Source: Trichormus sp. ATA11-4-KO1
Lineage (GTDB): Bacteria; Cyanobacteriota; Cyanobacteriia; Cyanobacteriales; Nostocaceae
Assembly: GCA_019358915.1 (NCBI GenBank)
Contig: JAHHIM010000027.1
Span: forward strand, 1-62,710
Length of the DNA: 62,710 bases
Reading direction: 5' to 3'
The notes under the pieces are model-generated. The model was not told the DNA's origin, ran no database searches, and worked only from the letters and a program-made list of their open reading frames with translations. The position numbers were made by a program, and so were the translations under genes. Below, piece by piece: positions 10,703 to 61,696 of the stretch (positions are counted from its first letter, which is position 1; every line of letters starts with the position of its first letter).

Positions 10703-13684
10703 GTGGTATTACAAGTACAAAGCAGCACCTACGAAGCTAAAACTCAGGAAATTGCTAAACAGCTTCTTGCTGCAACTAAGGAAAATCGTTCGTTTTTAGG
10801 TTCTCTGCGCGATCAGATGCGCTGGGATGATAAATTACTCGCTTGGGCGATGAGTAACCCAGGGTTGCGGGTGCAATTATTTCGTTTTATAGATACATTA
10901 CCCGCCTTGCAACATAAAGCGGAAATTGCTAGGCATTTACAAGAATATTTAGGAGATGAATCTGTAGAATTACCCGCAGCTTTAAAGGGGATGCTTAACT
11001 TTGCGAACCCTGATTCTATGCCGGGACAAGTGGCGGCGACTACTGTTTCTACAGCCGTGGAAACTTTGGCACATAAATATATTTCTGGGGAAAATATTAA
11101 ACAAGTTATTAAAACAGTTGAACGACTGCGAAAGGAAAAAATGGCTTTCACCATTGATTTACTTGGTGAGGCGGTAATTACGGAAGCGGAGGCGCAGTCT
11201 TATCTAGAACGCTATCTAGAATTAATGCAACAATTGGTAGAAGCGTCGCAGAATTGGGGTGTAATTCCGGCTATTGATGAAGCTGATGGCGAAACGCTAC
11301 CAAAAGTCCAAGTTTCTGTGAAGTTAACGGCGTTTTATTCGCAATTTGACCCTTTAGATGCTAAGGGTAGTGAGGAACGAGTAAGTGATCGCATTCGGAT
11401 TTTATTACGTCGGGCGAAAGAGTTGGGCGCATCTGTCCATTTTGATATGGAACAGTATGCTTATAAAGATTTAACTCTCAATATTTTGCAAAAGTTGTTA
11501 CTGGAAGAAGAATTTCGCCAACGTACAGATGTTGGGATGACAATTCAAGCATATCTGCGTGACAGTGAGGAGGATGCTAAAAAGTTAATTTCTTGGTTAA
11601 AACAGCGTGGTTATCCTTTGACAATTCGTTTAGTGAAGGGCGCTTATTGGGATCAGGAAACGATTAAAGCGGAACAGAAACATTGGCCACAGCCAGTTTA
11701 TCACGATAAGGTGGCAACTGATGCCAATTTTGAAGCTATCACTCAATTGTTGTTGGAAAATTACCAATATGTGTATGCTGCTATTGGTAGTCATAATGTG
11801 CGATCGCAAGCACGAGCTATAGCTATAGCTGAAAGTTTAAATGTCCCTCGCCGTTGCTTTGAAATGCAGGTGTTGTATGGGATGGGGGATAAGTTGGCTA
11901 AGGCTTTGGTGGATAAGGGTTATCGGGTGAGGGTTTATTGTCCCTATGGTGAATTGTTACCAGGGATGGCTTATCTGATTCGGCGGTTGTTGGAAAATAC
12001 AGCTAATAGTTCGTTTTTACGGCAAAATTTGGAGGATAGACCGATTGAGGAGTTGTTGGCGGCTCCGATTGGGGATTTGTCTCACGCAAAGGCGCAAAGT
12101 CGCAAAGATGAGGAGGGGTTTACTGGGGTTGCGGATACGGATTATGCGGAAGCAGAGGCAAGAAATATGTCTACTCAAGCTTTTCAAGAGGTGCGGCGTC
12201 AACTGGGTAGGACTTATCTACCGTTGATTAATGGGGAGTATGTTGATACTTCTGAGTTTGTTGATTCGCTGAATCCTTCTAATTTTAGTGAGGTGGTTGG
12301 TAGGGTTGGTTTGATTAGTGTGGCACAGGCGGAGCAGGCGATGCGAGCGGCTAAGGCGGCGTTTCCTGGTTGGCGCAAAACACCTGTGCAGCAACGGGCT
12401 GGGGTGTTGCGAAAGGCGGCTGATTTGATGGAAGCACGTCGGGCTGAACTTTCGGCTTGGATTGTTTTGGAGGTGGGGAAACCTGTTAAGGAGGCGGATG
12501 CGGAGGTTTCTGAGGCGATAGATTTCTGTCGCTATTATGCTGAGGAAATGGAACGGCTGGATAAAGGTGTTAATTATGACGTTGCGGGTGAAAATAATCG
12601 TTATATTTACCAGCCTAGGGGAATTGCTGTAGTGATTTCTCCTTGGAATTTCCCGTTGGCGATCGCTTGTGGTATGACTGTTGCTGCTTTGGTTGCGGGT
12701 AATTGTACTCTTCTGAAACCTGCGGAAACATCTTCGGTAATTACGGCGAAACTAACGGAAATTTTAATTGAGGCTGGCATTCCTAAAGGTGTTTTTCAAT
12801 ACGTACCCGGTAAGGGTTCCCAAGTAGGTGCTTATTTGGTAAATCATCCTGATACTCACATTATTGCTTTTACTGGTTCTCAAGAAGTTGGTTGTCAGAT
12901 TTATGCAGAAGCCGCAACCCTGAAGCCAGGACAAAAGCATCTTAAGCGGGTAATTGCGGAAATGGGCGGTAAAAATGCCATTATTGTGGATGAAAGTGCT
13001 GATTTAGACCAAGCTGTTGTCGGGGTGGTACAGTCCGCATTTGGTTACAGTGGACAAAAATGTTCTGCTTGTTCGCGGGTGATTGTGCTGCAACCAATTT
13101 ATGATGCCTTTGTCCGGCGGTTGGTGGAGGCGACGAAATCCTTAAATATTGGTGAGGCTGAGTTACCTAGTACCCAAGTTGGCCCGGTGATTGATGCTAA
13201 GTCCCGCGATCGCATCCGTGAGTATATTGAGAAGGGTAAAGCACAAGCACAGGTAGCTTTGGAATTACCAGCACCAGAACAAGGGTATTTTATCGGCCCA
13301 GTCATTTTTAGTGAAGTAGCACCGGATGCAATAATTGCCCAACAAGAAATTTTTGGGCCTGTGCTGGCGGTAACTAAAGTGAAAGATTTTGCGGAAGCTT
13401 TAACCGTCGCTAATGGTACTAACTATGCTTTGACTGGGGGACTTTATTCTCGCACACCTTCCCACATTCAGCAGGCACAGGAAGATTTTGAAATCGGGAA
13501 TTTGTACATTAATCGCACTATCACAGGTGCTATAGTTGCACGGCAACCCTTTGGAGGATTCAAACTTTCTGGTGTGGGTTCTAAAGCCGGAGGTCCTGAT
13601 TATCTCCTACAATTTTTGGAACCGCGTACAATCACCGAAAATATTCAGCGCCAAGGTTTTGCACCAATTGAAGGCGCAGAATAA
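10703..13684 (+). CDS. putA: Bifunctional proline dehydrogenase / glutamate-5-semialdehyde dehydrogenase
   Basis: RLVKGAYWD, YLIRRLLEN, ISPWNFP, FTGS, EMGGKN, GQKCSAC, EIFGP. Confidence 0.96.
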   Translation: MVLQVQSSTYEAKTQEIAKQLLAATKENRSFLGSLRDQMRWDDKLLAWAMSNPGLRVQLFRFIDTLPALQHKAEIARHLQEYLGDESVELPAALKGMLNFANPDSMPGQVAATTVSTAVETLAHKYISGENIKQVIKTVERLRKEKMAFTIDLLGEAVITEAEAQSYLERYLELMQQLVEASQNWGVIPAIDEADGETLPKVQVSVKLTAFYSQFDPLDAKGSEERVSDRIRILLRRAKELGASVHFDMEQYAYKDLTLNILQKLLLEEEFRQRTDVGMTIQAYLRDSEEDAKKLISWLKQRGYPLTIRLVKGAYWDQETIKAEQKHWPQPVYHDKVATDANFEAITQLLLENYQYVYAAIGSHNVRSQARAIAIAESLNVPRRCFEMQVLYGMGDKLAKALVDKGYRVRVYCPYGELLPGMAYLIRRLLENTANSSFLRQNLEDRPIEELLAAPIGDLSHAKAQSRKDEEGFTGVADTDYAEAEARNMSTQAFQEVRRQLGRTYLPLINGEYVDTSEFVDSLNPSNFSEVVGRVGLISVAQAEQAMRAAKAAFPGWRKTPVQQRAGVLRKAADLMEARRAELSAWIVLEVGKPVKEADAEVSEAIDFCRYYAEEMERLDKGVNYDVAGENNRYIYQPRGIAVVISPWNFPLAIACGMTVAALVAGNCTLLKPAETSSVITAKLTEILIEAGIPKGVFQYVPGKGSQVGAYLVNHPDTHIIAFTGSQEVGCQIYAEAATLKPGQKHLKRVIAEMGGKNAIIVDESADLDQAVVGVVQSAFGYSGQKCSACSRVIVLQPIYDAFVRRLVEATKSLNIGEAELPSTQVGPVIDAKSRDRIREYIEKGKAQAQVALELPAPEQGYFIGPVIFSEVAPDAIIAQQEIFGPVLAVTKVKDFAEALTVANGTNYALTGGLYSRTPSHIQQAQEDFEIGNLYINRTITGAIVARQPFGGFKLSGVGSKAGGPDYLLQFLEPRTITENIQRQGFAPIEGAE
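12080..12107 (+). repeat. CGCAAAG-type short repeat embedded in-frame in putA
   Basis: TCTCACGCAAAGGCGCAAAGTCGCAAAG; a near-identical intergenic copy is at 34346-34373 (minus). Confidence 0.8.
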
Positions 13685-22877: not shown

Positions 22878-25217
22878 ATGGATCAAGGATTAAGGCTACT
22901 AATGCAACTAGTATTAGAGTTTACACCTGTGATTGTCACTCTCATACAAAAGAGAACCGCAGAAACTTTAACTACAACCAATTATCAATTTCCAAAAGTC
23001 ATTCAAGAATTCATCCAAACGGCAAGTATTAATCCTCAGCAAAATAGTTCTGTGGTAGGATTTGCACAGCAAAAACTTCTGCAACAGCAATTAGCAGTTT
23101 TCCAGCGTGAAACACAATTACAAGTAGCAAATCAAGAAAGAGAAACAGTACTTAAATTACCAGAAGTTTACAAAATATTTGATAGCTGGCCTTTAAGACT
23201 GTATCCTTCACAAATTTTAGAGTCCCACACCAGTTATAAACGGATTCCGCTAAAAATTTTTCTTGCGCCTCCACAAGTTAAGTTTGACCAATTTGACTAT
23301 GAAACTCAAGATAATTCGCAAATAGAGCTAATGTTGGCTGAAGGTTTACGAGAATTTGTCCATAAGCATTACTCTCTGCAAAATTCCATTAGACCAACAG
23401 AATTATTGGCGGGTGCATGGGATAGTAAACGTTTTCATAGTGAATCTAGTATTAAAGCTTTGTTTGGGATGTTGAAAACAGAGCCAATTCTAATCTTAGA
23501 ATCAGAACATGATGGAGATTATTTAAATTTACGGATGGCTTATTGGGGATTAGGGCAAGAAAATTATTACTACAAAACAATTTTTCGCTTACCCTATAAA
23601 GAAATACTTCATGAATCTGCAAAAAATCGGGCTTTAAATTGGCAGAAAATTAGAGACGAGCTAATATTGCTGGGAGAAGATTTAGTAGAAATCAATCATT
23701 TAGGTAAAGATAATATACTCAATTTGGCAATTTTAGAAAAAGCAGAAAAATGGCAAGAAAAGGGTATTGATATTAGCCAATTGTCTTTAAAATACCAAGT
23801 TAATCATCAGGATTTAGAAAAACTTTGTCAGGTGTTAATTACCTGCCATTGTTTGGTTGCTGCTTGGGTAGCAGATGCTTATCACTTAGTTCATCATGAT
23901 GTGCAGCCTTTACTACCAGAGGTGCTGCCGAGTTTGCTTAAAGATACATTTGATTTACAATCTGTGCAAGAGCCATTAAGTGTGTATGCCACAGGCTATC
24001 AACAAGTTTACCAAGCGTTAGAACAGGAGCGACGTTACTGGGTGCCGGAGTTGGCTTTGCAATTAGCTCAAAGTTTATCTCATTTACCCGATCGCTCTTG
24101 GGCAAATTCACAAGTTGATTACTCTGTAAACACATGGTTGCAATTGCGTCAAGTATCACTCCAGGAATTTACTAATCCTTTAGAGGCGATGCAATCAGCT
24201 ATCAAGATTGAAGATGAAGCATATCTAGAAAAGTTAAAAGCATATTTTACGGCAGTCAGCGATGGCCAAAGTATTCTGGATGTGGAGAAGCTTTTGGATG
24301 CGATCGCTCATCTCAAACACCAACATACTTTAGCATCTCCTGGTCTTTGCTACACCATAACTGGACATTCCGGCAAAGTTGCATCTGTAGCCATCAGTCC
24401 TGATGGCGAGATGTTAATCAGTGGATGTACAGATAAAACTATCAATGTCTGGAATTTGCACACCAGTGAAAAAATCCGCACCCTCTCGGGGAATCAAGGA
24501 GAAATTTCATCGCTGGCCGTTAGTCCTGATGGCAATTTCCTTGCTGTTGGTAGTTGTGAACACCCGAGAAGTAATGTCAAAGTCTGGCATTTAAAAACAG
24601 GCAAACTACTCCACACACTTTTGGGACATCAAAAACCAGTAAATGTCGTAGCAATTAGCCCAGATGGACAAATTCTCGCCAGTGGCAGTAATAAAATCAA
24701 AATCTGGCATCTGCACAAAGGCGATCGCATTTGTACTCTTTGGCATTCGTCAGCTGTTCATGCTGTAGCTATTAGTCCAAATGGTAAAATTCTCGCCAGT
24801 GGCAGTTTTGACAGCAAAATCAGGCTGTGGAACCCACACACAGGTGATCCTTTACGCACGCTCAACGGTCATGACAATGAGGTAAACTCAATTGCTATCA
24901 GTCCTGATGGACAACTCCTCTTTAGCGGTAGCGCTGATACAACCATCAAAATTTGGCATCTGATTACAGGTAAACTGCTGCATACACTGAGTGGTCACTC
25001 AAATGCAGTCAAATCAATAGCGATTAGTTCTGACGCACAAACCCTCTTCAGTGCTAGTGCGGATACAACCATTAAAATCTGGCATCTTGCTACAGGTGAA
25101 GTGCGGCAAACTTTAACTGGACATTCAGGAACGGTAAATACTCTTTCTCTCAGTCCAGATGGTAAGTTTCTAGCTAGTGGTAGTTCTGATAGAACCATTA
25201 AAATCTGGCAAATATAG
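22878..25217 (+). CDS. WD40-repeat protein with large uncharacterised N-terminal region
   Basis: Seven GH..W repeats in the C-terminal ~290 aa. Confidence 0.92.
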   Translation: MDQGLRLLMQLVLEFTPVIVTLIQKRTAETLTTTNYQFPKVIQEFIQTASINPQQNSSVVGFAQQKLLQQQLAVFQRETQLQVANQERETVLKLPEVYKIFDSWPLRLYPSQILESHTSYKRIPLKIFLAPPQVKFDQFDYETQDNSQIELMLAEGLREFVHKHYSLQNSIRPTELLAGAWDSKRFHSESSIKALFGMLKTEPILILESEHDGDYLNLRMAYWGLGQENYYYKTIFRLPYKEILHESAKNRALNWQKIRDELILLGEDLVEINHLGKDNILNLAILEKAEKWQEKGIDISQLSLKYQVNHQDLEKLCQVLITCHCLVAAWVADAYHLVHHDVQPLLPEVLPSLLKDTFDLQSVQEPLSVYATGYQQVYQALEQERRYWVPELALQLAQSLSHLPDRSWANSQVDYSVNTWLQLRQVSLQEFTNPLEAMQSAIKIEDEAYLEKLKAYFTAVSDGQSILDVEKLLDAIAHLKHQHTLASPGLCYTITGHSGKVASVAISPDGEMLISGCTDKTINVWNLHTSEKIRTLSGNQGEISSLAVSPDGNFLAVGSCEHPRSNVKVWHLKTGKLLHTLLGHQKPVNVVAISPDGQILASGSNKIKIWHLHKGDRICTLWHSSAVHAVAISPNGKILASGSFDSKIRLWNPHTGDPLRTLNGHDNEVNSIAISPDGQLLFSGSADTTIKIWHLITGKLLHTLSGHSNAVKSIAISSDAQTLFSASADTTIKIWHLATGEVRQTLTGHSGTVNTLSLSPDGKFLASGSSDRTIKIWQI

Positions 25218-25232
25218 CAAATCGCTCAGTAT

Positions 25233-25575
25233 TAGCCCTTTCAAGGTGTAATATATTTTTCTTAACGTGAATTCGATGAACCTCACCCCAACCCCTCTCC
25301 GACACGGAGAGGGGCAAAAATCTCCCTAGTTTTGAACTAAAAATCAAGGTTTCAAAGCCTCTACGCCACTTGCTACAACGCGGGGAACCCGCGCAACGCA
25401 GTGGCTCCTCCTGGCAGGGGAGAGGTTTGGAGAGGGGTTTTTTCCACTTGTCGAACTCACGTTTTCTTAGTGTCTTAGTGGTTAAAAAAATGATATTTGA
25501 ACACAAAGACACAAAGGTGGAAAGCCTAAAATTGTGTCCAATTTTACGTGATTTTTACTCACCTTGAATGGGCTG
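25233..25575. mobile_element. MITE (TAGCCCTTTCAAGGTG ends) carrying a nested second MITE
   Basis: IRs TAGCCCTTTCAAGGTG / CACCTTGAATGGGCTG. An uninterrupted sibling is at 36733-36886. Confidence 0.8.
25264..25463. mobile_element. Nested MITE with 5-bp flanking direct repeat
   Basis: IRs AACGTGAATTCGA / TCGAACTCACGTT. TTCTT on both sides (25259-63, 25464-68). Confidence 0.8.
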
Positions 25576-34224: not shown

Positions 34225-34345
34225 TGGAGGGATGGGGGGACAAGAGCAGGGCTGATTCGTTCCCTAAAAGGGTTAAAATTGCAAGGGCAAATCCACAATT
34301 AAGACCGAAAATTTTGGCATCTTCAGTCCGAAATACCTGATTTTT

Positions 34346-34373
34346 CTTTGCGTCTTTGCGCCTTTGCGTGAGA
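34346..34373 (-). repeat. Intergenic CGCAAAG-type repeat
   Basis: Minus strand TCTCACGCAAAGGCGCAAAGACGCAAAG. Confidence 0.75.
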
Positions 34374-34744
34374 TTATCCTCTTGACAAATCTCCAACACA
34401 AGCCAATGAAACAGCCCTGGGGACAAGGGGACAAGAAAAATTATTTCTACCTTCCTATCTCCCAATGCCCAATACCCAGAAACAAGATCCCCCTAGCCGT
34501 CTTTTTTCTTGCAGCTAGGGGGATCACATATGTGGTAGTCTATAAATGGTTCAGTATAGTGGCTTACGTAATCGATTTTAAAGCCTATATTTGGTTTTGT
34601 GTAGTCACATAATTAGAATTTATACAATTTTTATAGCAGCTTCATCACCGCTTCATTCCCATGCTTGGCGGAAAAAACGTATATGTTTAAGTATGGTATT
34701 AAGTATTGCATAACTTTTCATTCTTGTTAAGATCCGTAGAAAGT

Positions 34745-36732: not shown

Positions 36733-36886
36733 TAGCCCTTTCAATATGTCATGTATTTTTCTTGGTGTCTTAGTGTCTTAGTGGTAAAAAAAATAACTTT
36801 TAAACCACAAAGGCACAAAGACACAAAGGTGGAAGTCCTAAAATTGGAAAAATTTTAGGTAGTTTTTACCCACCTGGAAAGGGCTG
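36733..36886. mobile_element. MITE, sibling of 25233-25575
   Basis: TAGCCCTTTCAA..CACCTGGAAAGGGCTG with the shared CTTAGTGT and CACAAAGA internal repeats. Confidence 0.8.
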
Positions 36887-51797: not shown

Positions 51798-51898
51798 TGT
51801 TTCGCGCAAAGGCGCAAAGGCGCGAGTAGTTATTAACATTGTACCAAGAGCTAAGGCAATTGATACTGCTGCGATCGCTAGCAAGTTAATTCAGTAAA

Positions 51899-55391: not shown

Positions 55392-55531
55392 TATATCGAT
55401 TCCCCGTTAAGTGAGGTAAAGAACTAAGTTTTTAAACGCAGAGGGACGCTAAGGTAGCGCAGAGTTACGCAAAGATTGCCCAATTTTATGAGCAATGTAC
55501 TCTGTACTTCAGCCGATTAGGAAACGCTATA
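55392..55531. mobile_element. MITE-like element
   Basis: Imperfect IRs TATATCGATTCC..GAGGTA / TACTTC..GGAAACGCTATA with internal CGCAGAG-type repeats. Confidence 0.55.
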
Positions 55532-55617
55532 TCATTTTTAGGTGTACTATAAAGATAATTATCCCTCAAAGATTTACGATATATAAGCTGTACCTCATTT
55601 ACTTGCAAAGCGCTGTA

Positions 55618-56303
55618 TCACCATTGGCTGAGTACAAGTACGATGTGTCGTGCATTGCAAAAACAAAAACTCACACGAAAAAAAAGACGTTACGCAGCAG
55701 CCAAGCAAAAACTCCAAGAGTCCAAAATTTGAGAACTGAGTATTGGCAGCAAGTCCAACAAATAGACCCAGATGATTTGGTTTTTCTGGATGAAATGGGT
55801 GTTTTACTGGGGTTAACACGAACTCATGCCCGCAGCCCTCATGGAAGTAGAGTGTATGATTGTCAACCATTTTATCGGGGGTCAAAAGTCACAGTCATTG
55901 GGGCAATTAGCACAAAACAAGTTTTAGCTGTGATGACCTTGAATGGTTCAATGGATGGAAACGCATTCAAAGTTTTTATCGAACAGTGTTTACTGCCGCA
56001 ACTATGGCCGGGTGCTGTAGTTGTTATGGATAATCTTCCCGCACATAAAGTCAAAGAAATTGAATCTTTAATTCAATCAAAGGGCGCAAGCATTCTTTAT
56101 CAGTCACCCTATTCTCCTGACTTTAATCCCATTGAACATTGGTGGTCACAATTAAAAGCTTTTCTCCGTTCCTTTTCTCCCACTACTGCCAAAATGGTTG
56201 ACGTTCTCATTGCCACTGCACTCGATTTGATTAATCCCTTGCATTTGAAAAACTGGTTTACAAACTGTTGTTACTGTACCTCATAAACCTGAAATACGCT
56301 GTA
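55618..56303 (+). mobile_element. 5'-truncated IS630-family element (end of orfA, A8 frameshift site, orfB, right end)
   Basis: FLDEMG, VVMDNLPAHK, YSPDFNPIE; right end CCTGAAATACGCTG|TA. The ORF-track N-terminus (55495-55670) is chimeric read-through. Confidence 0.85.
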
Positions 56304-57351: not shown

Positions 57352-60267
57352 CTAAAACTCCCCGGCTAAGGCGGGAACGCAGCGTTCACATAATAAGGGA
57401 TGCTCTTTTGATTCTCCCACATGGGTAGAATAATTCCAGCAGCGATCGCATTTCTCCCCTTCTGCTTTGTAAACCTGAAAATATATGGGTGCATCATCTC
57501 CTTCCTCACGGATAGGTTCAGATGGTACTTCCACTTGAGAAACTAAAAATAGATATCGTAACTCATCTACACCATTACTTTTTTCAAGTGAACCATGAGT
57601 ACTGGGATTGAGAGTTTGTAAAAGTTGACGTAATCTCTCATCAAAGACATGCAGTACAACTTTGGCTTCTAGAGAAGATCCAATTGTTTTTTGTATTCGA
57701 TATACCTCTAGTTTCCGGTTGACTTCATCACGAATTTTTCGTAAGTCTGTCCAAAATTCCCCTAACTCTGGATTATTCCAGGCTTCATCTACTTGCACCC
57801 AACCGGCTTCAAATACCGATTTATAAGGTGTTTTGTAGGGAATATATTGCCAGATATCTTCAGCAGTATGACATAACACAGGTGCGATCGCTCTAGCTAA
57901 ATTCTCTAAAGCAATCTGCAATACTGTTTGACAGCTGCGACGACGGAAAGCATTAGCAGCACTAATGTACAGTCTATCTTTGGCAACATCTAAATAGAAG
58001 TTGGATAAATCCACAACGCAGAAATTCTGCACTGTTTGGAAAAAGCGGAAGAATTGGAAGGGCTGCTTCTCTTCCTTACCTTCGGCTACAGGTTTAGGTT
58101 CAAAAGCGGCTGTAACTTCCTCAAAAACCTCCGTCATGCGGTGTAGCATATAACGGTCGAGTTCTGGCAAATCTTCCAAAGGTACTGCATCTTTTTCGGG
58201 GTCAAAATCATGCAAACTACCCAACAAAAATCGCGCTGTATTGCGAATCTTATTTCTAACATCAGCTAATTGCTTGATGATATTACCACCCAGACGCACA
58301 TCAGCAGAATAATCTACCGAAGACACCCACAAACGCAGCACATCTGCACCATAGGGGGGTTCTTTTTTCTGGTCTTTCCCGCCATTAATTACTACTTGGG
58401 GGTCAACCACATTCCCCACAGACTTACTCATCTTCCGTCCTTGTTCATCTAAGACAAAGCCGTGAGTCAAGACAGTTTTATAAGGTGCAATGCCATTGAC
58501 TGCTACACTTGTCAGCAAACTTGACTGGAACCATCCCCGGTGTTGGTCGGAACCTTCCAAATACATATCAGCCGGGTAACGTAACTCAGGACGTTGTTTC
58601 GCTACAGCCGCCCAAGATGAACCAGAATCAAACCACACATCCATTGTGTCTGTACCTTTGCGGTAAGACTTACCATCGTTGCGGTAAGACTGGGGTAATA
58701 ACTCCTCTACCGACATTTCCCACCAAGCATCAGAACCTTTTTCGGCGATGATAGCTTGGACATGATTAATAGTTTCCTCATTCAGTAGCGGTTCCCCAGT
58801 AGCTTCATCGTAGAACACCGGAATGGGTACACCCCAACTACGCTGACGAGAAATACACCAATCAGAACGTTCCGCCACCATCGGCGTGATGCGATTTTCA
58901 CCTTGGGCTGGAATCCATTTTACCGCAGCGATCGCCTTTAATGCTTCATCCCTAAAACCAGCCACCGAAGCAAACCATTGTTCCGTCGCCCGGAAAATCG
59001 TCGGCTTTTTCGTCCGCCAATCATAAGGATACTTGTGCGCGTAAGCTTCCTCCTTCAACAAAGAACCAGCAGCCGTCAACGCATCAATTACCGCTTGATT
59101 TCCCTCACCCAGCACATTCAACCCAGCAAACTCACCCGCTTCCTGAGTAAAATTGCCATTGTCATCCACTGGTGCGAGAATCGGTAACTTATAACGCTGA
59201 CCCACAATGTAGTCTTCTTGACCATGACCCGGTGCAGTATGTACCAACCCAGTACCCGACTCAGTAGTAATATAATCACCACCCACCACCACCGGACTTT
59301 CACGGTCAAACAAAGGATGACGATAAGTAGAATGTTCTAACTCCCGCCCCTTAAACGTAGCCCTCACCGTTAAATCCACATCCAAAGTAGCAGCCAAACG
59401 TTCCACCAAATCAGTAGCCACAATTAGATATTCACTTTGCGTCTTTGCGTCTTGGCGCGAAACCTCCACCACCGCATAATTCAAATCACCATTTACCGCC
59501 ACAGCCAAATTCCCCGGAATCGTCCAAGGAGTAGTAGTCCACACAGCCACACTCAAATTCGGCAGAAATTCCCTCAACACAGGTTGTACCGCCTCAGCCA
59601 ACTTAGTCACCCGAAAAGCCGCATAAATACTGCGAGAAGTATGACCCTCCGGATATTCCAACTCCGCCTCAGCCAAAGCCGTCTTAGAACTGGGACTCCA
59701 ATGCACAGGCTTCAAACCACGATAGATGTATCCTTTTAACACCATCTGACCGAACACACCAATTTGCGCCGCCTCATATTCCGGCTTCAAAGTCAGATAA
59801 GGATGATCCCAATCACCCCAAACACCGTAGCGTTTAAAACATTCCCGTTGGTCATTTACCGTAGCTAAAGCAAACTCCTGCGCTTTTTGCCGTAGAGTTA
59901 AAGGCGTTAAATTTTGCCGTTCTGCCGACTTCATATTTTGCAGAACCTTCAACTCAATCGGTAAACCGTGACAATCCCAACCAGGCACGTATCTAACTTT
60001 ACGCCCTTGTAGCAGTTGGTAACGGTTAATAATATCTTTGAGAATTTTATTTAAGGCATGACCAATATGCAGTGAGCCATTAGCGTAGGGAGGCCCATCA
60101 TGAAGTATAAATAATTCGCCTGGGTTTTCTTGCGACAGGCGATCATAAATATTATTTTCTGCCCAGAACTTTTGGATTTCGGGTTCCCGCTTGATGGCGT
60201 TCGCCCGCATATCGAATTTAGTCTTGGGTAAGTTTACCGTATCTTTGTAGCTTCCAGGTTCTGTCAC
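57352..60267 (-). CDS. ileS: Isoleucine--tRNA ligase (GTG start at 60267)
   Basis: HIGH, WTTTPWT, GTGLVH, KMSKS, C-terminal CDRC..CERC. Confidence 0.98.
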   Translation of the reverse strand: MTEPGSYKDTVNLPKTKFDMRANAIKREPEIQKFWAENNIYDRLSQENPGELFILHDGPPYANGSLHIGHALNKILKDIINRYQLLQGRKVRYVPGWDCHGLPIELKVLQNMKSAERQNLTPLTLRQKAQEFALATVNDQRECFKRYGVWGDWDHPYLTLKPEYEAAQIGVFGQMVLKGYIYRGLKPVHWSPSSKTALAEAELEYPEGHTSRSIYAAFRVTKLAEAVQPVLREFLPNLSVAVWTTTPWTIPGNLAVAVNGDLNYAVVEVSRQDAKTQSEYLIVATDLVERLAATLDVDLTVRATFKGRELEHSTYRHPLFDRESPVVVGGDYITTESGTGLVHTAPGHGQEDYIVGQRYKLPILAPVDDNGNFTQEAGEFAGLNVLGEGNQAVIDALTAAGSLLKEEAYAHKYPYDWRTKKPTIFRATEQWFASVAGFRDEALKAIAAVKWIPAQGENRITPMVAERSDWCISRQRSWGVPIPVFYDEATGEPLLNEETINHVQAIIAEKGSDAWWEMSVEELLPQSYRNDGKSYRKGTDTMDVWFDSGSSWAAVAKQRPELRYPADMYLEGSDQHRGWFQSSLLTSVAVNGIAPYKTVLTHGFVLDEQGRKMSKSVGNVVDPQVVINGGKDQKKEPPYGADVLRLWVSSVDYSADVRLGGNIIKQLADVRNKIRNTARFLLGSLHDFDPEKDAVPLEDLPELDRYMLHRMTEVFEEVTAAFEPKPVAEGKEEKQPFQFFRFFQTVQNFCVVDLSNFYLDVAKDRLYISAANAFRRRSCQTVLQIALENLARAIAPVLCHTAEDIWQYIPYKTPYKSVFEAGWVQVDEAWNNPELGEFWTDLRKIRDEVNRKLEVYRIQKTIGSSLEAKVVLHVFDERLRQLLQTLNPSTHGSLEKSNGVDELRYLFLVSQVEVPSEPIREEGDDAPIYFQVYKAEGEKCDRCWNYSTHVGESKEHPLLCERCVPALAGEF
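59435..59462 (-). repeat. CGCAAAG-type repeat embedded in-frame in ileS
   Basis: Coding strand TTTCGCGCCAAGACGCAAAGACGCAAAG (SRQDAKTQS). Confidence 0.75.
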
Positions 60268-60322: not shown

Positions 60323-60673
60323 ATGATTCCCCAAAATTCTTTGCTGCCCAATGCCGAAAATGCAATTGTTGATATTCGTAAACTGCGTGACTACAGCCTT
60401 AATCCAAACCATCCTACAGGTAAGGATAAAGCCCGTCTTTTTTCCTCTATTTTGGGGATAACTGCTGATAATGCTGAAGAATTGCGTCAAATTATTTTGG
60501 CAAAAGTCAAAACTCAAGCAGTTAGCTTAAATCGGTGTGATGAGTTTGGGCAACGTTACACACTGGATTTTACTCTGTAATGGCAAAATAGAAGTGCAAC
60601 TATCCGCACTGGTTGGATAATTCAACCTGATAGTGATATTCCCAGATTAACCAGTTGCTATCCTTTGTTGTAA
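60323..60673 (+). pseudogene. DUF6883-like protein with internal TAA stop (60578-60580)
   Basis: KLRDYSLNPNHPTGKDKARLF..FGQRY; frame continues WQNRSATIRTGWII..PRLTSCYPLL*. Confidence 0.8.
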
Positions 60674-60692
60674 TATCTGGAGGCTATGCGAA

Positions 60693-60941
60693 ATGAATCA
60701 AAGCACACCCAAGTTGCTGGATATAGTGGCACTGACAGAAGATATACCCGAATATAATTTATTGCGCGGTCAAGTCGGGACAATCGTGGAAATGTTAGCC
60801 GATGGTGCTGCATTTGAAGTAGAATTTAGCGATCGCAATGGACAAACCTATGAATCTATTGGTTTACGTCCAGAACAAGTTATGGTGTTACATTTTGAAC
60901 CAGCAGACCCTAATTTAAAGCCGGAAATAGTCACAGTGTAA
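60693..60941 (+). CDS. DUF4926 family protein
   Basis: LLDIVAL..L.RGQVGTIVE..FEVEFSD..G.TY. Confidence 0.88.
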   Translation: MNQSTPKLLDIVALTEDIPEYNLLRGQVGTIVEMLADGAAFEVEFSDRNGQTYESIGLRPEQVMVLHFEPADPNLKPEIVTV

Positions 60942-61004
60942 TTAATTATAGCTCAATAGCTGAATGTTACGATCATTGATATTTACCGAATTGGCATTAA
61001 CTCG

Positions 61005-61250
61005 ATGAGTCTATCACTAGAAAAAATGTTCAGCGAGATTGACCAACTGACCCCAGAAGAACAATTAACGGTGATGGGGTATTTAGTAGAACGGATGAAA
61101 CAGCACGTCATTCAAGTACAATCAAAACGCAAATGGAGTGATTTAAAGGGTATGGCTTCATATCCATTATTAGGTAAAGATGCTCAAGAGTGGGTTTCTC
61201 AGACTAGACGGGAAGGAGATGACCATCGCTCAAGCTTGTTAAGCGAATAA
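61005..61250 (+). CDS. Putative antitoxin
   Basis: G.DAQEWVS..R motif, directly upstream of a PIN gene. Confidence 0.78.
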   Translation: MSLSLEKMFSEIDQLTPEEQLTVMGYLVERMKQHVIQVQSKRKWSDLKGMASYPLLGKDAQEWVSQTRREGDDHRSSLLSE

Positions 61251-61252
61251 CA

Positions 61253-61696
61253 ATGAAGATTAGTGAGGCATTAATAGGAGTTTTTCATATATTTATTGAT
61301 ACAGCACCAGTTATTTATTTTGTAGAGCGCAATCCGCAATTTGTGAATTTAGTAGATCCAATTTTTGAAAGATTGGAAACTGATATTACAGCAGTAGTAT
61401 CTCCAATAACATTGTCTGAATGTTTGGTGGGTGTTAAGCGTTTAGGATTAACGGATTTAGAGGAAGCTTTTGTTGATGTATTGCTAAGTAATGAAGTGGT
61501 TTTTGTAGATATTAATGCTGCTATTGCGCGAGAAGCTGCGAAAATCAGATTACTTTACAATGTACAGTTACCTGATGCTTTACAAGTGGCTGTAGCTTTA
61601 ACAAATAATTGTGATGCTTTTTTAACTAATGATCTAACTCTAAAGCGAGTAACAGAGTTGAGAATATTGGTAGTAAGTGATTTACAAGTAGGGTAA
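61253..61696 (+). CDS. PIN-domain VapC-like toxin
   Basis: FIDTAPVIY, TLSE, LPDALQ, FLTND. Confidence 0.92.
   Translation: MKISEALIGVFHIFIDTAPVIYFVERNPQFVNLVDPIFERLETDITAVVSPITLSECLVGVKRLGLTDLEEAFVDVLLSNEVVFVDINAAIAREAAKIRLLYNVQLPDALQVAVALTNNCDAFLTNDLTLKRVTELRILVVSDLQVG

Follow-up and report, generated by a model that had tools for sequence, protein, structure and literature searches.

A 27-nt cis element, one copy of which lies in the isoleucine-tRNA ligase gene ileS of the cyanobacterium Trichormus sp. ATA11-4-KO1, appears by itself to polarize nearby substitutions in the Nostocaceae, a reading to which we assign a probability of roughly 0.9. On the strand that reads the repeat (hereafter R), silent sites on both sides of it are enriched in G and T, and this bias depends on the repeat arm, stopping where the arm has been lost from a second core gene, putA. 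Both genes lie in the window, the whole 62,710-nt stretch analyzed here (contig JAHHIM010000027.1, assembly GCA_019358915.1), with putA on the plus strand and ileS on the minus strand. The host genome (G000; 5.97 Mb in 73 contigs, 99.9% complete) was analyzed with simple open reading frame (ORF) calls (4574 ORFs) and not with a curated annotation.

The asymmetry is most conspicuous in ileS (TIGR00392, 998 bits at a cut-off of 621; GTG start codon at 60267), where 38 of the 40 codons at 59580-59461 end in G or T, versus 17 of 40 at 60264-60145 (codons 2-41), counts that a first-pass annotation of the sequence had given and that are exact on recount. With a genome background of 0.516, the probability of at least 38 in 40 is 2e-9, or 0.004 when corrected for ~1.5 million windows. 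The G/T zone, or halo, extends from ~59900 to ~58750, with the repeat at its center and nearly equal strength on either side (z 7.7 for the 141 codons upstream, z 7.8 for the 147 downstream); the skew thus continues past the repeat as that annotation had stated, the repeat itself ending at 59461 (59435-59461) and not at 59462. The skew is likewise two-sided in the putA-type gene (TIGR01237, above cut-off; z 6.2 upstream, z 8.6 downstream), and in both genes the peak coincides with the repeat, which bears out the earlier suggestion of a local effect around the same repeat in two genes of opposite strand. First and second codon positions of ileS lean in the same direction, with 21 versus 8 consensus changes in the halo and 29 versus 22 distally. 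Genome-wide, 17 genes reach at least 37 of 40 G/T-ending codons, and a same-strand repeat arm lies within 600 bp in 12 of these 17, versus 2.7% of random windows.

The repeat is built of three C(G/A)C-NN-AG units in 27 nt. Its family A, to which the ileS and putA copies belong, follows an 8-nt period after a YTCR leader, while family B starts AAC and family D has wider spacing. Judged by sequence, the ileS copy is an isolated (solo) arm of a kind that flanks, as inverted repeats, genes for a predicted nuclease of the GxxExxY family. Family-A arms are mostly solo (95 solo versus 6 paired among scored copies in G000) and fold weakly or not at all (-5.0, -2.0, and -0.3 kcal/mol in three examples), a variable base breaking the stem; a structured RNA at the ileS repeat was rejected, as Rfam gave no match at that site at E<=1. 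Of the cyanobacterial genomes sampled, the family-A pattern occurs in 22 of the 24 from Nostocaceae but in only 4 of the 176 from elsewhere in the phylum. It is also carried by an estimated 18,000 stretches of metagenome (26-70% GC) and by ~210 stretches of viral contigs.

Halos were scored on R as third-position G/T versus an amino-acid-matched expectation within 400 bp of the repeat, omitting copies with too few nearby codons. Among solo copies with unique flanks in G000, 18 of 48 in family A exceed z 3 with 1 below -3, and 15 of 52 in family B exceed it with none below -3, together 33 of 100 versus 1; null windows (4839 drawn at random) lie above z 3 in 3.4% and below -3 in 3.1% of cases. 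A looser B class of the same kind yields 6 of 36 at z>3 and 1 at z<-3, and family D yields 8 of 34 at z>3, a figure that is partly circular since the family was found partly by inspecting skew peaks. The profile is tent-shaped, running from ~-500 to ~+700 bp and reaching background beyond ~800 bp, with no long-range component. A solo, non-hairpin arm is enough for a halo, which is two-sided on one strand.

Several neighboring sequence features leave no such footprint. Close inverted arm pairs in G000 have no net halo (mean near 0). Family-A arms are also dispersed by two elements resembling miniature inverted-repeat transposable elements (MITEs), one of 173 bp (40 core matches) and one of ~105 bp (11 matches, short flanking duplications), and these transposon-borne copies show no halo (47 copies, mean z 0.09). 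The G/T-rich strand is, as the first-pass annotation proposed, the repeat-reading strand, but the heptamer CGCAAAG by which it identified that strand is rejected as the signal (658 isolated copies, mean z 0.02). There is likewise no halo at HIP1 sites (7362) or at the other heptamer and hairpin repeats tested, no enrichment of HIP1 or methylation sites within halos (HIP1 density 0.85 vs 0.83 per kb), and no clear motif in a k-mer scan for determinants beyond the A and B arms.

The orientation of the halo is set by the arm. Genes lying opposite R also shift to G/T on R (53 sites, mean z 1.30, 9 above 3 and 1 below -3), so that the reversed skew suggested earlier as a check on antisense copies is indeed found, and this reversal excludes transcription as the explanation. 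In terms of the coding strand, four-fold G+T is 0.64 in sense and 0.42 in antisense genes at a background of 0.50 (147 unselected solo sites), the antisense halo being weaker than the sense halo. The halo ignores transcription direction even across a divergent gene pair (C65:105473), and the pattern is replicated on both gene strands in two other genomes, G168 (first 30 of 73 sites) and G084 (25 solo sites among the first 30 of 99). Arm orientations are mixed along both of these complete chromosomes, and a replichore polarity of the arms in G168 was rejected accordingly. The signature of a replication origin is also missing: the sign is the same on both sides of the repeat, with no switch and a return to background within the distance given above, for which reasons the earlier argument that replichore skew cannot explain both genes holds.

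Loss and gain of the arm among orthologues provide a control in two core genes. The ileS set comprises 107 usable orthologues of 117 loci; the putA set comprises 70, of which 30 were picked by similarity to the G000 halo and 40 by genus. The halo-minus-distal difference in four-fold G+T of ileS is +0.21 with at most 2 arm mismatches (n=26), +0.23 with 3-5 (n=9), and +0.05 with more (n=72), and for putA the three values are +0.255 (n=32), +0.229 (n=14), and +0.105 (n=24), the last in element-less orthologues. When branches of the putA tree are classed by the arm (all 70 taxa), those with it have a factor of 1.74 into G/T and 0.50 into A/C, and those without it 1.03 and 1.07, an improvement in log-likelihood (lnL) of 42 for 2 degrees of freedom. 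The same fit for ileS (52 taxa) gives 1.81/0.71 with the arm and 1.44/1.11 without (improvement 13.5); as the factor into G/T is still 1.44, return to background after arm loss is only partial in this gene. Within the ileS arm, silent positions resist the surrounding drift to G/T; of 31 taxa picked for an intact arm, 28 have CGC at an arginine codon, a sign that this arm may be maintained at the DNA level. The permissive loops that host the arms, the putA linker and the ileS loop, are hot spots in which arms are replaced or interrupted by other small hairpin repeats, patchily across the tree.

These observations bear on the possibility that arms enter DNA that is already skewed, or that codon usage, transcription, or replichore bias produces the pattern. 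Genome-wide skew is overdispersed (z standard deviation 1.66) with many peaks in foreign or repetitive genes, the element-less orthologues of both genes remain positive, and viral solo loci (n=71) show a flat 0.52-0.57 G+T on R and no local halo, all of which would fit such an origin. It is nonetheless contradicted by MITE-borne copies residing in unskewed DNA, by the end of the bias on branches without the arm, and by the reversal in antisense genes, and both arm orientations are interspersed on two complete chromosomes; we consider it highly improbable.

The substitution spectrum further characterizes the bias. A 12-rate fit at four-fold sites, covering 219 columns within halos and 334 distal ones from 24 ileS and 29 putA taxa that were selected for having both arm and halo, yields halo/distal ratios on R that are raised for A>G (1.38), A>T (2.32), C>G (1.48), C>T (1.66), G>T (1.78), and T>G (1.36), and lowered for A>C (0.54), C>A (0.76), G>A (0.46), G>C (0.53), T>A (0.49), and T>C (0.53), several of the ranges from 23 bootstraps including 1. 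All six complementary rate pairs point in the same direction. A destination-base model with only two parameters (1.67 into G/T and 0.49 into A/C, a sum near 2) has the best Akaike information criterion (AIC) of eight models at 22880 and lies only 3.9 lnL below the 12-parameter model. The others are the full model (22892), keto selection (22899), transitions-only (22926), protection-only (22948), C>T-only (22950), exposure-only (22969), and the null (23039); the transitions-only, C>T-only, exposure-only, and protection-only models were rejected on these values. The overall rate scale of halo versus distal sites is 1.02, which indicates redistribution between strands and rejects any local hypermutation that the first-pass annotation might imply. 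Among close pairs with intact arms, six have a four-fold divergence that is unchanged or reduced in halos, and in four it is raised. CC/GG contexts show the largest shift, a comparison confounded with halo strength.

The same spectrum speaks to selection or biased gene conversion in favor of G/T alleles on R, whether through RecA pairing, avoidance of cut sites, or a heteroduplex mismatch bias between chromosome copies. A keto-selection model (S ~1.4) captures most of the signal, and the conservation of silent positions within the arm is compatible with selection acting there. An allele-level bias, however, cannot account for a rise in both G>T and T>G (1.78 and 1.36) together with a fall in both A>C and C>A (0.54 and 0.76), and the destination model leads by 9.7 lnL with a support of 0.93 from resampling of estimated log-likelihoods (RELL), which is suggestive only. 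Selection is thereby moderately disfavored, and we regard this explanation as improbable.

The arms also frame nuclease cassettes. G000 carries three intact GxxExxY genes (PF13366, TIGR04256), each lying between inverted arms that belong to family B, to family D, or to a third type; it also has a frameshifted GxxExxY remnant between family-B/C arms (C73:123282-123700). Among the best 30 relatives of the GxxExxY gene of G084, a family-A arm lies upstream in 25 and inverted downstream in 25, with the reservation that these loci are related to one another and one was mis-parsed. A congener, G001, has a family-A cassette at the site where G000 retains one arm and a stub (relic C55:171120). From the upstream to the downstream flank, cassette G+T runs 0.68, 0.73, 0.56, 0.43, 0.47, and 0.29, a profile as expected from two opposite two-sided halos. 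Most arms are dispersed, a GxxExxY gene adjoining them at 1 of 80 metagenome loci, 0 of 80 viral loci, 0 of 30 sites in G168, and 2 of 30 in G084 (one cassette).

Structure prediction assigns the GxxExxY protein with confidence to the PD-(D/E)XK fold (predicted local distance difference test 95.1). Its best structural neighbors share the restriction-endonuclease-like fold at a middling Z of 8.1 (root-mean-square deviation 2.5 over 91 residues) and include the Cas4 and AddAB nucleases; E27, D67, E77, K79, and Q91-x3-Y95 are conserved, and no solved relative was found by sequence or by Foldseek at E<=0.001. Among host repair genes, G000 encodes MutS together with a MutL whose motif is of the endonuclease type. 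A transposase of the RAYT/Y1 type (PF01797), Vsr, and MutH were rejected as trans factors for lack of a match in G000; the control for the PF01797 search gave matches in 6 of 14 genomes.

The mechanism that we favor, at about even odds, is a strand-specific nick at the arm followed by bidirectional excision and fill-in. Near an arm, sequence information would be inherited preferentially from R, the opposite strand being removed and resynthesized. Ordinarily, one of the two daughters receives a mismatch or lesion; near the arm, such a change would be fixed if on R (by a factor 1+p) and erased if on the other strand (1-p), with p ~0.5-0.7, and we propose that the substitution factors sum to ~2 because of this preferential inheritance. 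Deamination, oxidation, and depurination on the retained template, together with G/T misinsertions in the retained new strand, lead to G/T on R. The strand mark may be a site-specific nick by a GxxExxY nuclease, and excision in both directions (of the MutS/MutL type, or by exonucleolytic gap expansion) with fill-in would give the two-sided, tent-shaped zone. The halo would accumulate over long times, a slowness that could explain why recently moved copies have none.

Several observations weigh against this mechanism. About two thirds of solo copies in G000 remain below z 3, a strict A/B arm is missing from 145 of the 178 strongest skew peaks (many of those inspected being foreign or repetitive genes), and solo family-A copies from metagenomes (n=47, GC 26-70%, mostly not cyanobacteria-like) have no halo, with G+T of 0.49-0.52. 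Five ileS orthologues combine an intact arm with a weak halo (+0.07 to +0.17), and ileS branches with decayed arms retain the factor of 1.44 into G/T. The rates rest on two genes, the 12-rate and model-comparison fits used taxa chosen for arm and halo, and the lead over keto selection is only the 9.7 lnL given above (RELL 0.90 versus four free fitnesses). As for the enzyme, G000 (99.9% complete in 73 contigs) has no family-A-type GxxExxY gene and halos do not track the present-day presence of the partner gene; putA terminal branches differ little with it (1.35/0.39) and without it (1.75/0.61). The function of GxxExxY is listed as 'Unknown', with no nuclease activity known, in the part of the source available (PMC3424549), and sequence alone cannot tell which strand is cut. 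Substitutions near the arm are polarized; to the enzymatic step we attach about half the probability given to that polarization.

Strand choice might instead arise at the fork, if a single-strand-specific nuclease akin to SsnA or RAYT (repetitive extragenic palindromic [REP]-associated tyrosine transposase) cut the recognized strand when exposed as lagging-strand template; the broken daughter would be resected on both sides and repaired from its sister, locally erasing one parental strand's information with each same-direction fork. This variant too would predict two-sided, same-strand halos with factors near 1.5/0.5. In analogous repeat systems, the partner enzyme cleaves a single strand of one orientation according to the available portion of PMC11893778, Cas4 and AddAB are among the fold neighbors named above, and multiple replication origins, described for Nostoc PCC 7120 in the accessible text of PMC7198777, might explain halos here and not in other bacteria. 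The observed 1.7/0.5, however, would mean that more than 100 sites broke almost each time a fork passed, and the arms, with the folding energies given above, need not fold. We therefore consider the fork variant unlikely.

Less likely again is a nuclease-independent route, in which a host protein, an R-loop, or a bubble at the arm exposes R while the other strand is protected or preferentially repaired. In its favor, halos are independent of present-day partner genes, the shift is strongest in the CC/GG contexts (with the confounding noted), and the direction is that of the leading-strand (lagging-template) asymmetry, C>T being higher there as far as the part of PMC11890065 at hand describes it. 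Exposure-only and protection-only fits are nonetheless far worse (AIC 22969 and 22948 vs 22880), the halo is insensitive to transcription direction, the divergent pair included, and the site has no Rfam match.

The small dispersed repeats (SDRs) of Nostocaceae described by Elhai et al. 2008 reportedly measure 21-27 nt. In the passages of two papers that cite them (PMC5861425, PMC4390886), they resemble the present repeat in their Nostocaceae distribution and nested insertions; those passages mention no partner gene or halo, and the repeat studied here is, unlike the SDRs, also widespread outside cyanobacteria. Ssn/NTS, as presented in the part of PMC11893778 consulted, likewise pairs a small nuclease gene of one domain with repeats of its own on either side, has hundreds of oriented dispersed repeats, and shows strand-specific recognition. 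Its nuclease SsnA is of the GIY-YIG type, whereas the partner here is PF13366/TIGR04256 with the PD-(D/E)XK fold; arms here are tandem trimers without an obligatory hairpin, some in frame in core genes, and that part of the source describes no substitution halo. With the REP/REPIN-RAYT systems (excerpts of PMC3116915), the arms share the flanking of a partner gene, the occurrence as inverted doublets and singlets, and one repeat family per partner gene. G000, however, has no Y1_Tnp gene (PF01797, 0 matches), the arms are not palindromic, and inverted doublets prevail there, while family A is predominantly solo; singlets are non-functional remnants there according to the same excerpts and carry the effect here.

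Also comparable are MutH/GATC repair and the proposed GmeC-directed HIP1 repair (PMC4390886, in part), in which a sequence signal picks the strand to be excised over ~1 kb to each side. In the present case, that role falls to a non-palindromic repeat of fixed polarity and not to a transient hemimethylation, G000 has no MutH match, and HIP1 density is the same in halos. The keto and GC skew of replication (PMC11890065, in part) has the same direction, R resembling the leading strand, but the halo is ~1 kb wide, has one sign on both sides without a switch, and lacks a long-range component. As a combination of repeats and nuclease, the layout is a version of systems already known; no published description of the halo or of the repeat strings was found in the literature searched, in which subscription journals are thinly covered. 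The contributions of this analysis are the sufficiency of a solo non-hairpin arm, the one-strand, two-sided halo, the end of the bias on arm loss, and the full substitution spectrum.

Table 1. Repeat arms, halos, and host genes in the window
Feature	Position	Strand	Remarks
Family-A repeat arm, solo, in frame in variable loop of IleS	59435..59461	-	three CGC-NN-AG units, 8-nt period, YTCR leader
G/T halo at silent sites of ileS, two-sided, on repeat strand	58750..59900	-	codon counts, z scores
ileS (isoleucine-tRNA ligase), host gene	57352..60267	-	TIGR00392
Family-A arm, solo, inter-domain linker of putA	12081..12107	+	
G/T halo in putA	11800..12700	+	z 6.2 up, 8.6 down
putA-type proline/P5C dehydrogenase, host gene	10703..13684	+	TIGR01237
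Two-unit family-A arm between convergent genes	51801..51819	+	halo on upstream side only, z 3.4 / -1.1
173-bp MITE-like element (40 core matches) with family-A arm at 34346-34372	34247..34419	-	no halo; internal negative control
Family-D arm (related units, wider spacing)	55435..55453	+	weak halo, z 2.4 / 0.5
Close inverted pair, CAC-type (B/C) arms	36761..36828	.	no net halo
Close inverted pair, CAC-type (B/C) arms	25466..25516	.	no net halo

Beyond the features of Table 1, an IS630-family transposase fragment (55495-56286) lies directly 3' of the family-D arm, and a cluster of short genes at 60350-61300, upstream of ileS, has by eye the appearance of toxin-antitoxin pairs or pairs with domains of unknown function (DUFs), PIN-like in character. 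Elsewhere in G000, mutS (C65:217457-220094) lies in a G/T halo (z 7.6-7.9) centered on a different, 22-nt repeat, of which there are 7 copies (6 scored) and which adjoins arm-like units. Two reverse transcriptases of ~480-500 aa, putatively of the group II intron type, occupy A/C-rich coding skew peaks (C28:20653, C67:6243) and are not linked to arms.

Replication and transcription are the causes to which strand skews in bacteria are attributed, whereas in the present case the polarity of substitution is set by a 27-nt cis element alone. Codon-usage and phylogenetic analyses of genes such as ileS, putA, and mutS are locally distorted. The cassettes offer a first testable function for the uncharacterized GxxExxY family, with a concrete substrate and a strand prediction, and a way into both strand choice in repair by cyanobacteria without MutH and the irregular skew profiles of the Nostocales. 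More tentatively, the Nostocaceae may carry a portable, sequence-encoded signal for strand choice, in which the arms of a selfish GxxExxY cassette tell the cell which parental strand to keep in local repair. Maintained in core genes, such arms would rewrite base composition and some amino acids, and they may serve as a strand-discrimination cue in polyploid, MutH-less, multi-origin cyanobacteria; their footprint may be general for repeat-plus-nuclease systems.

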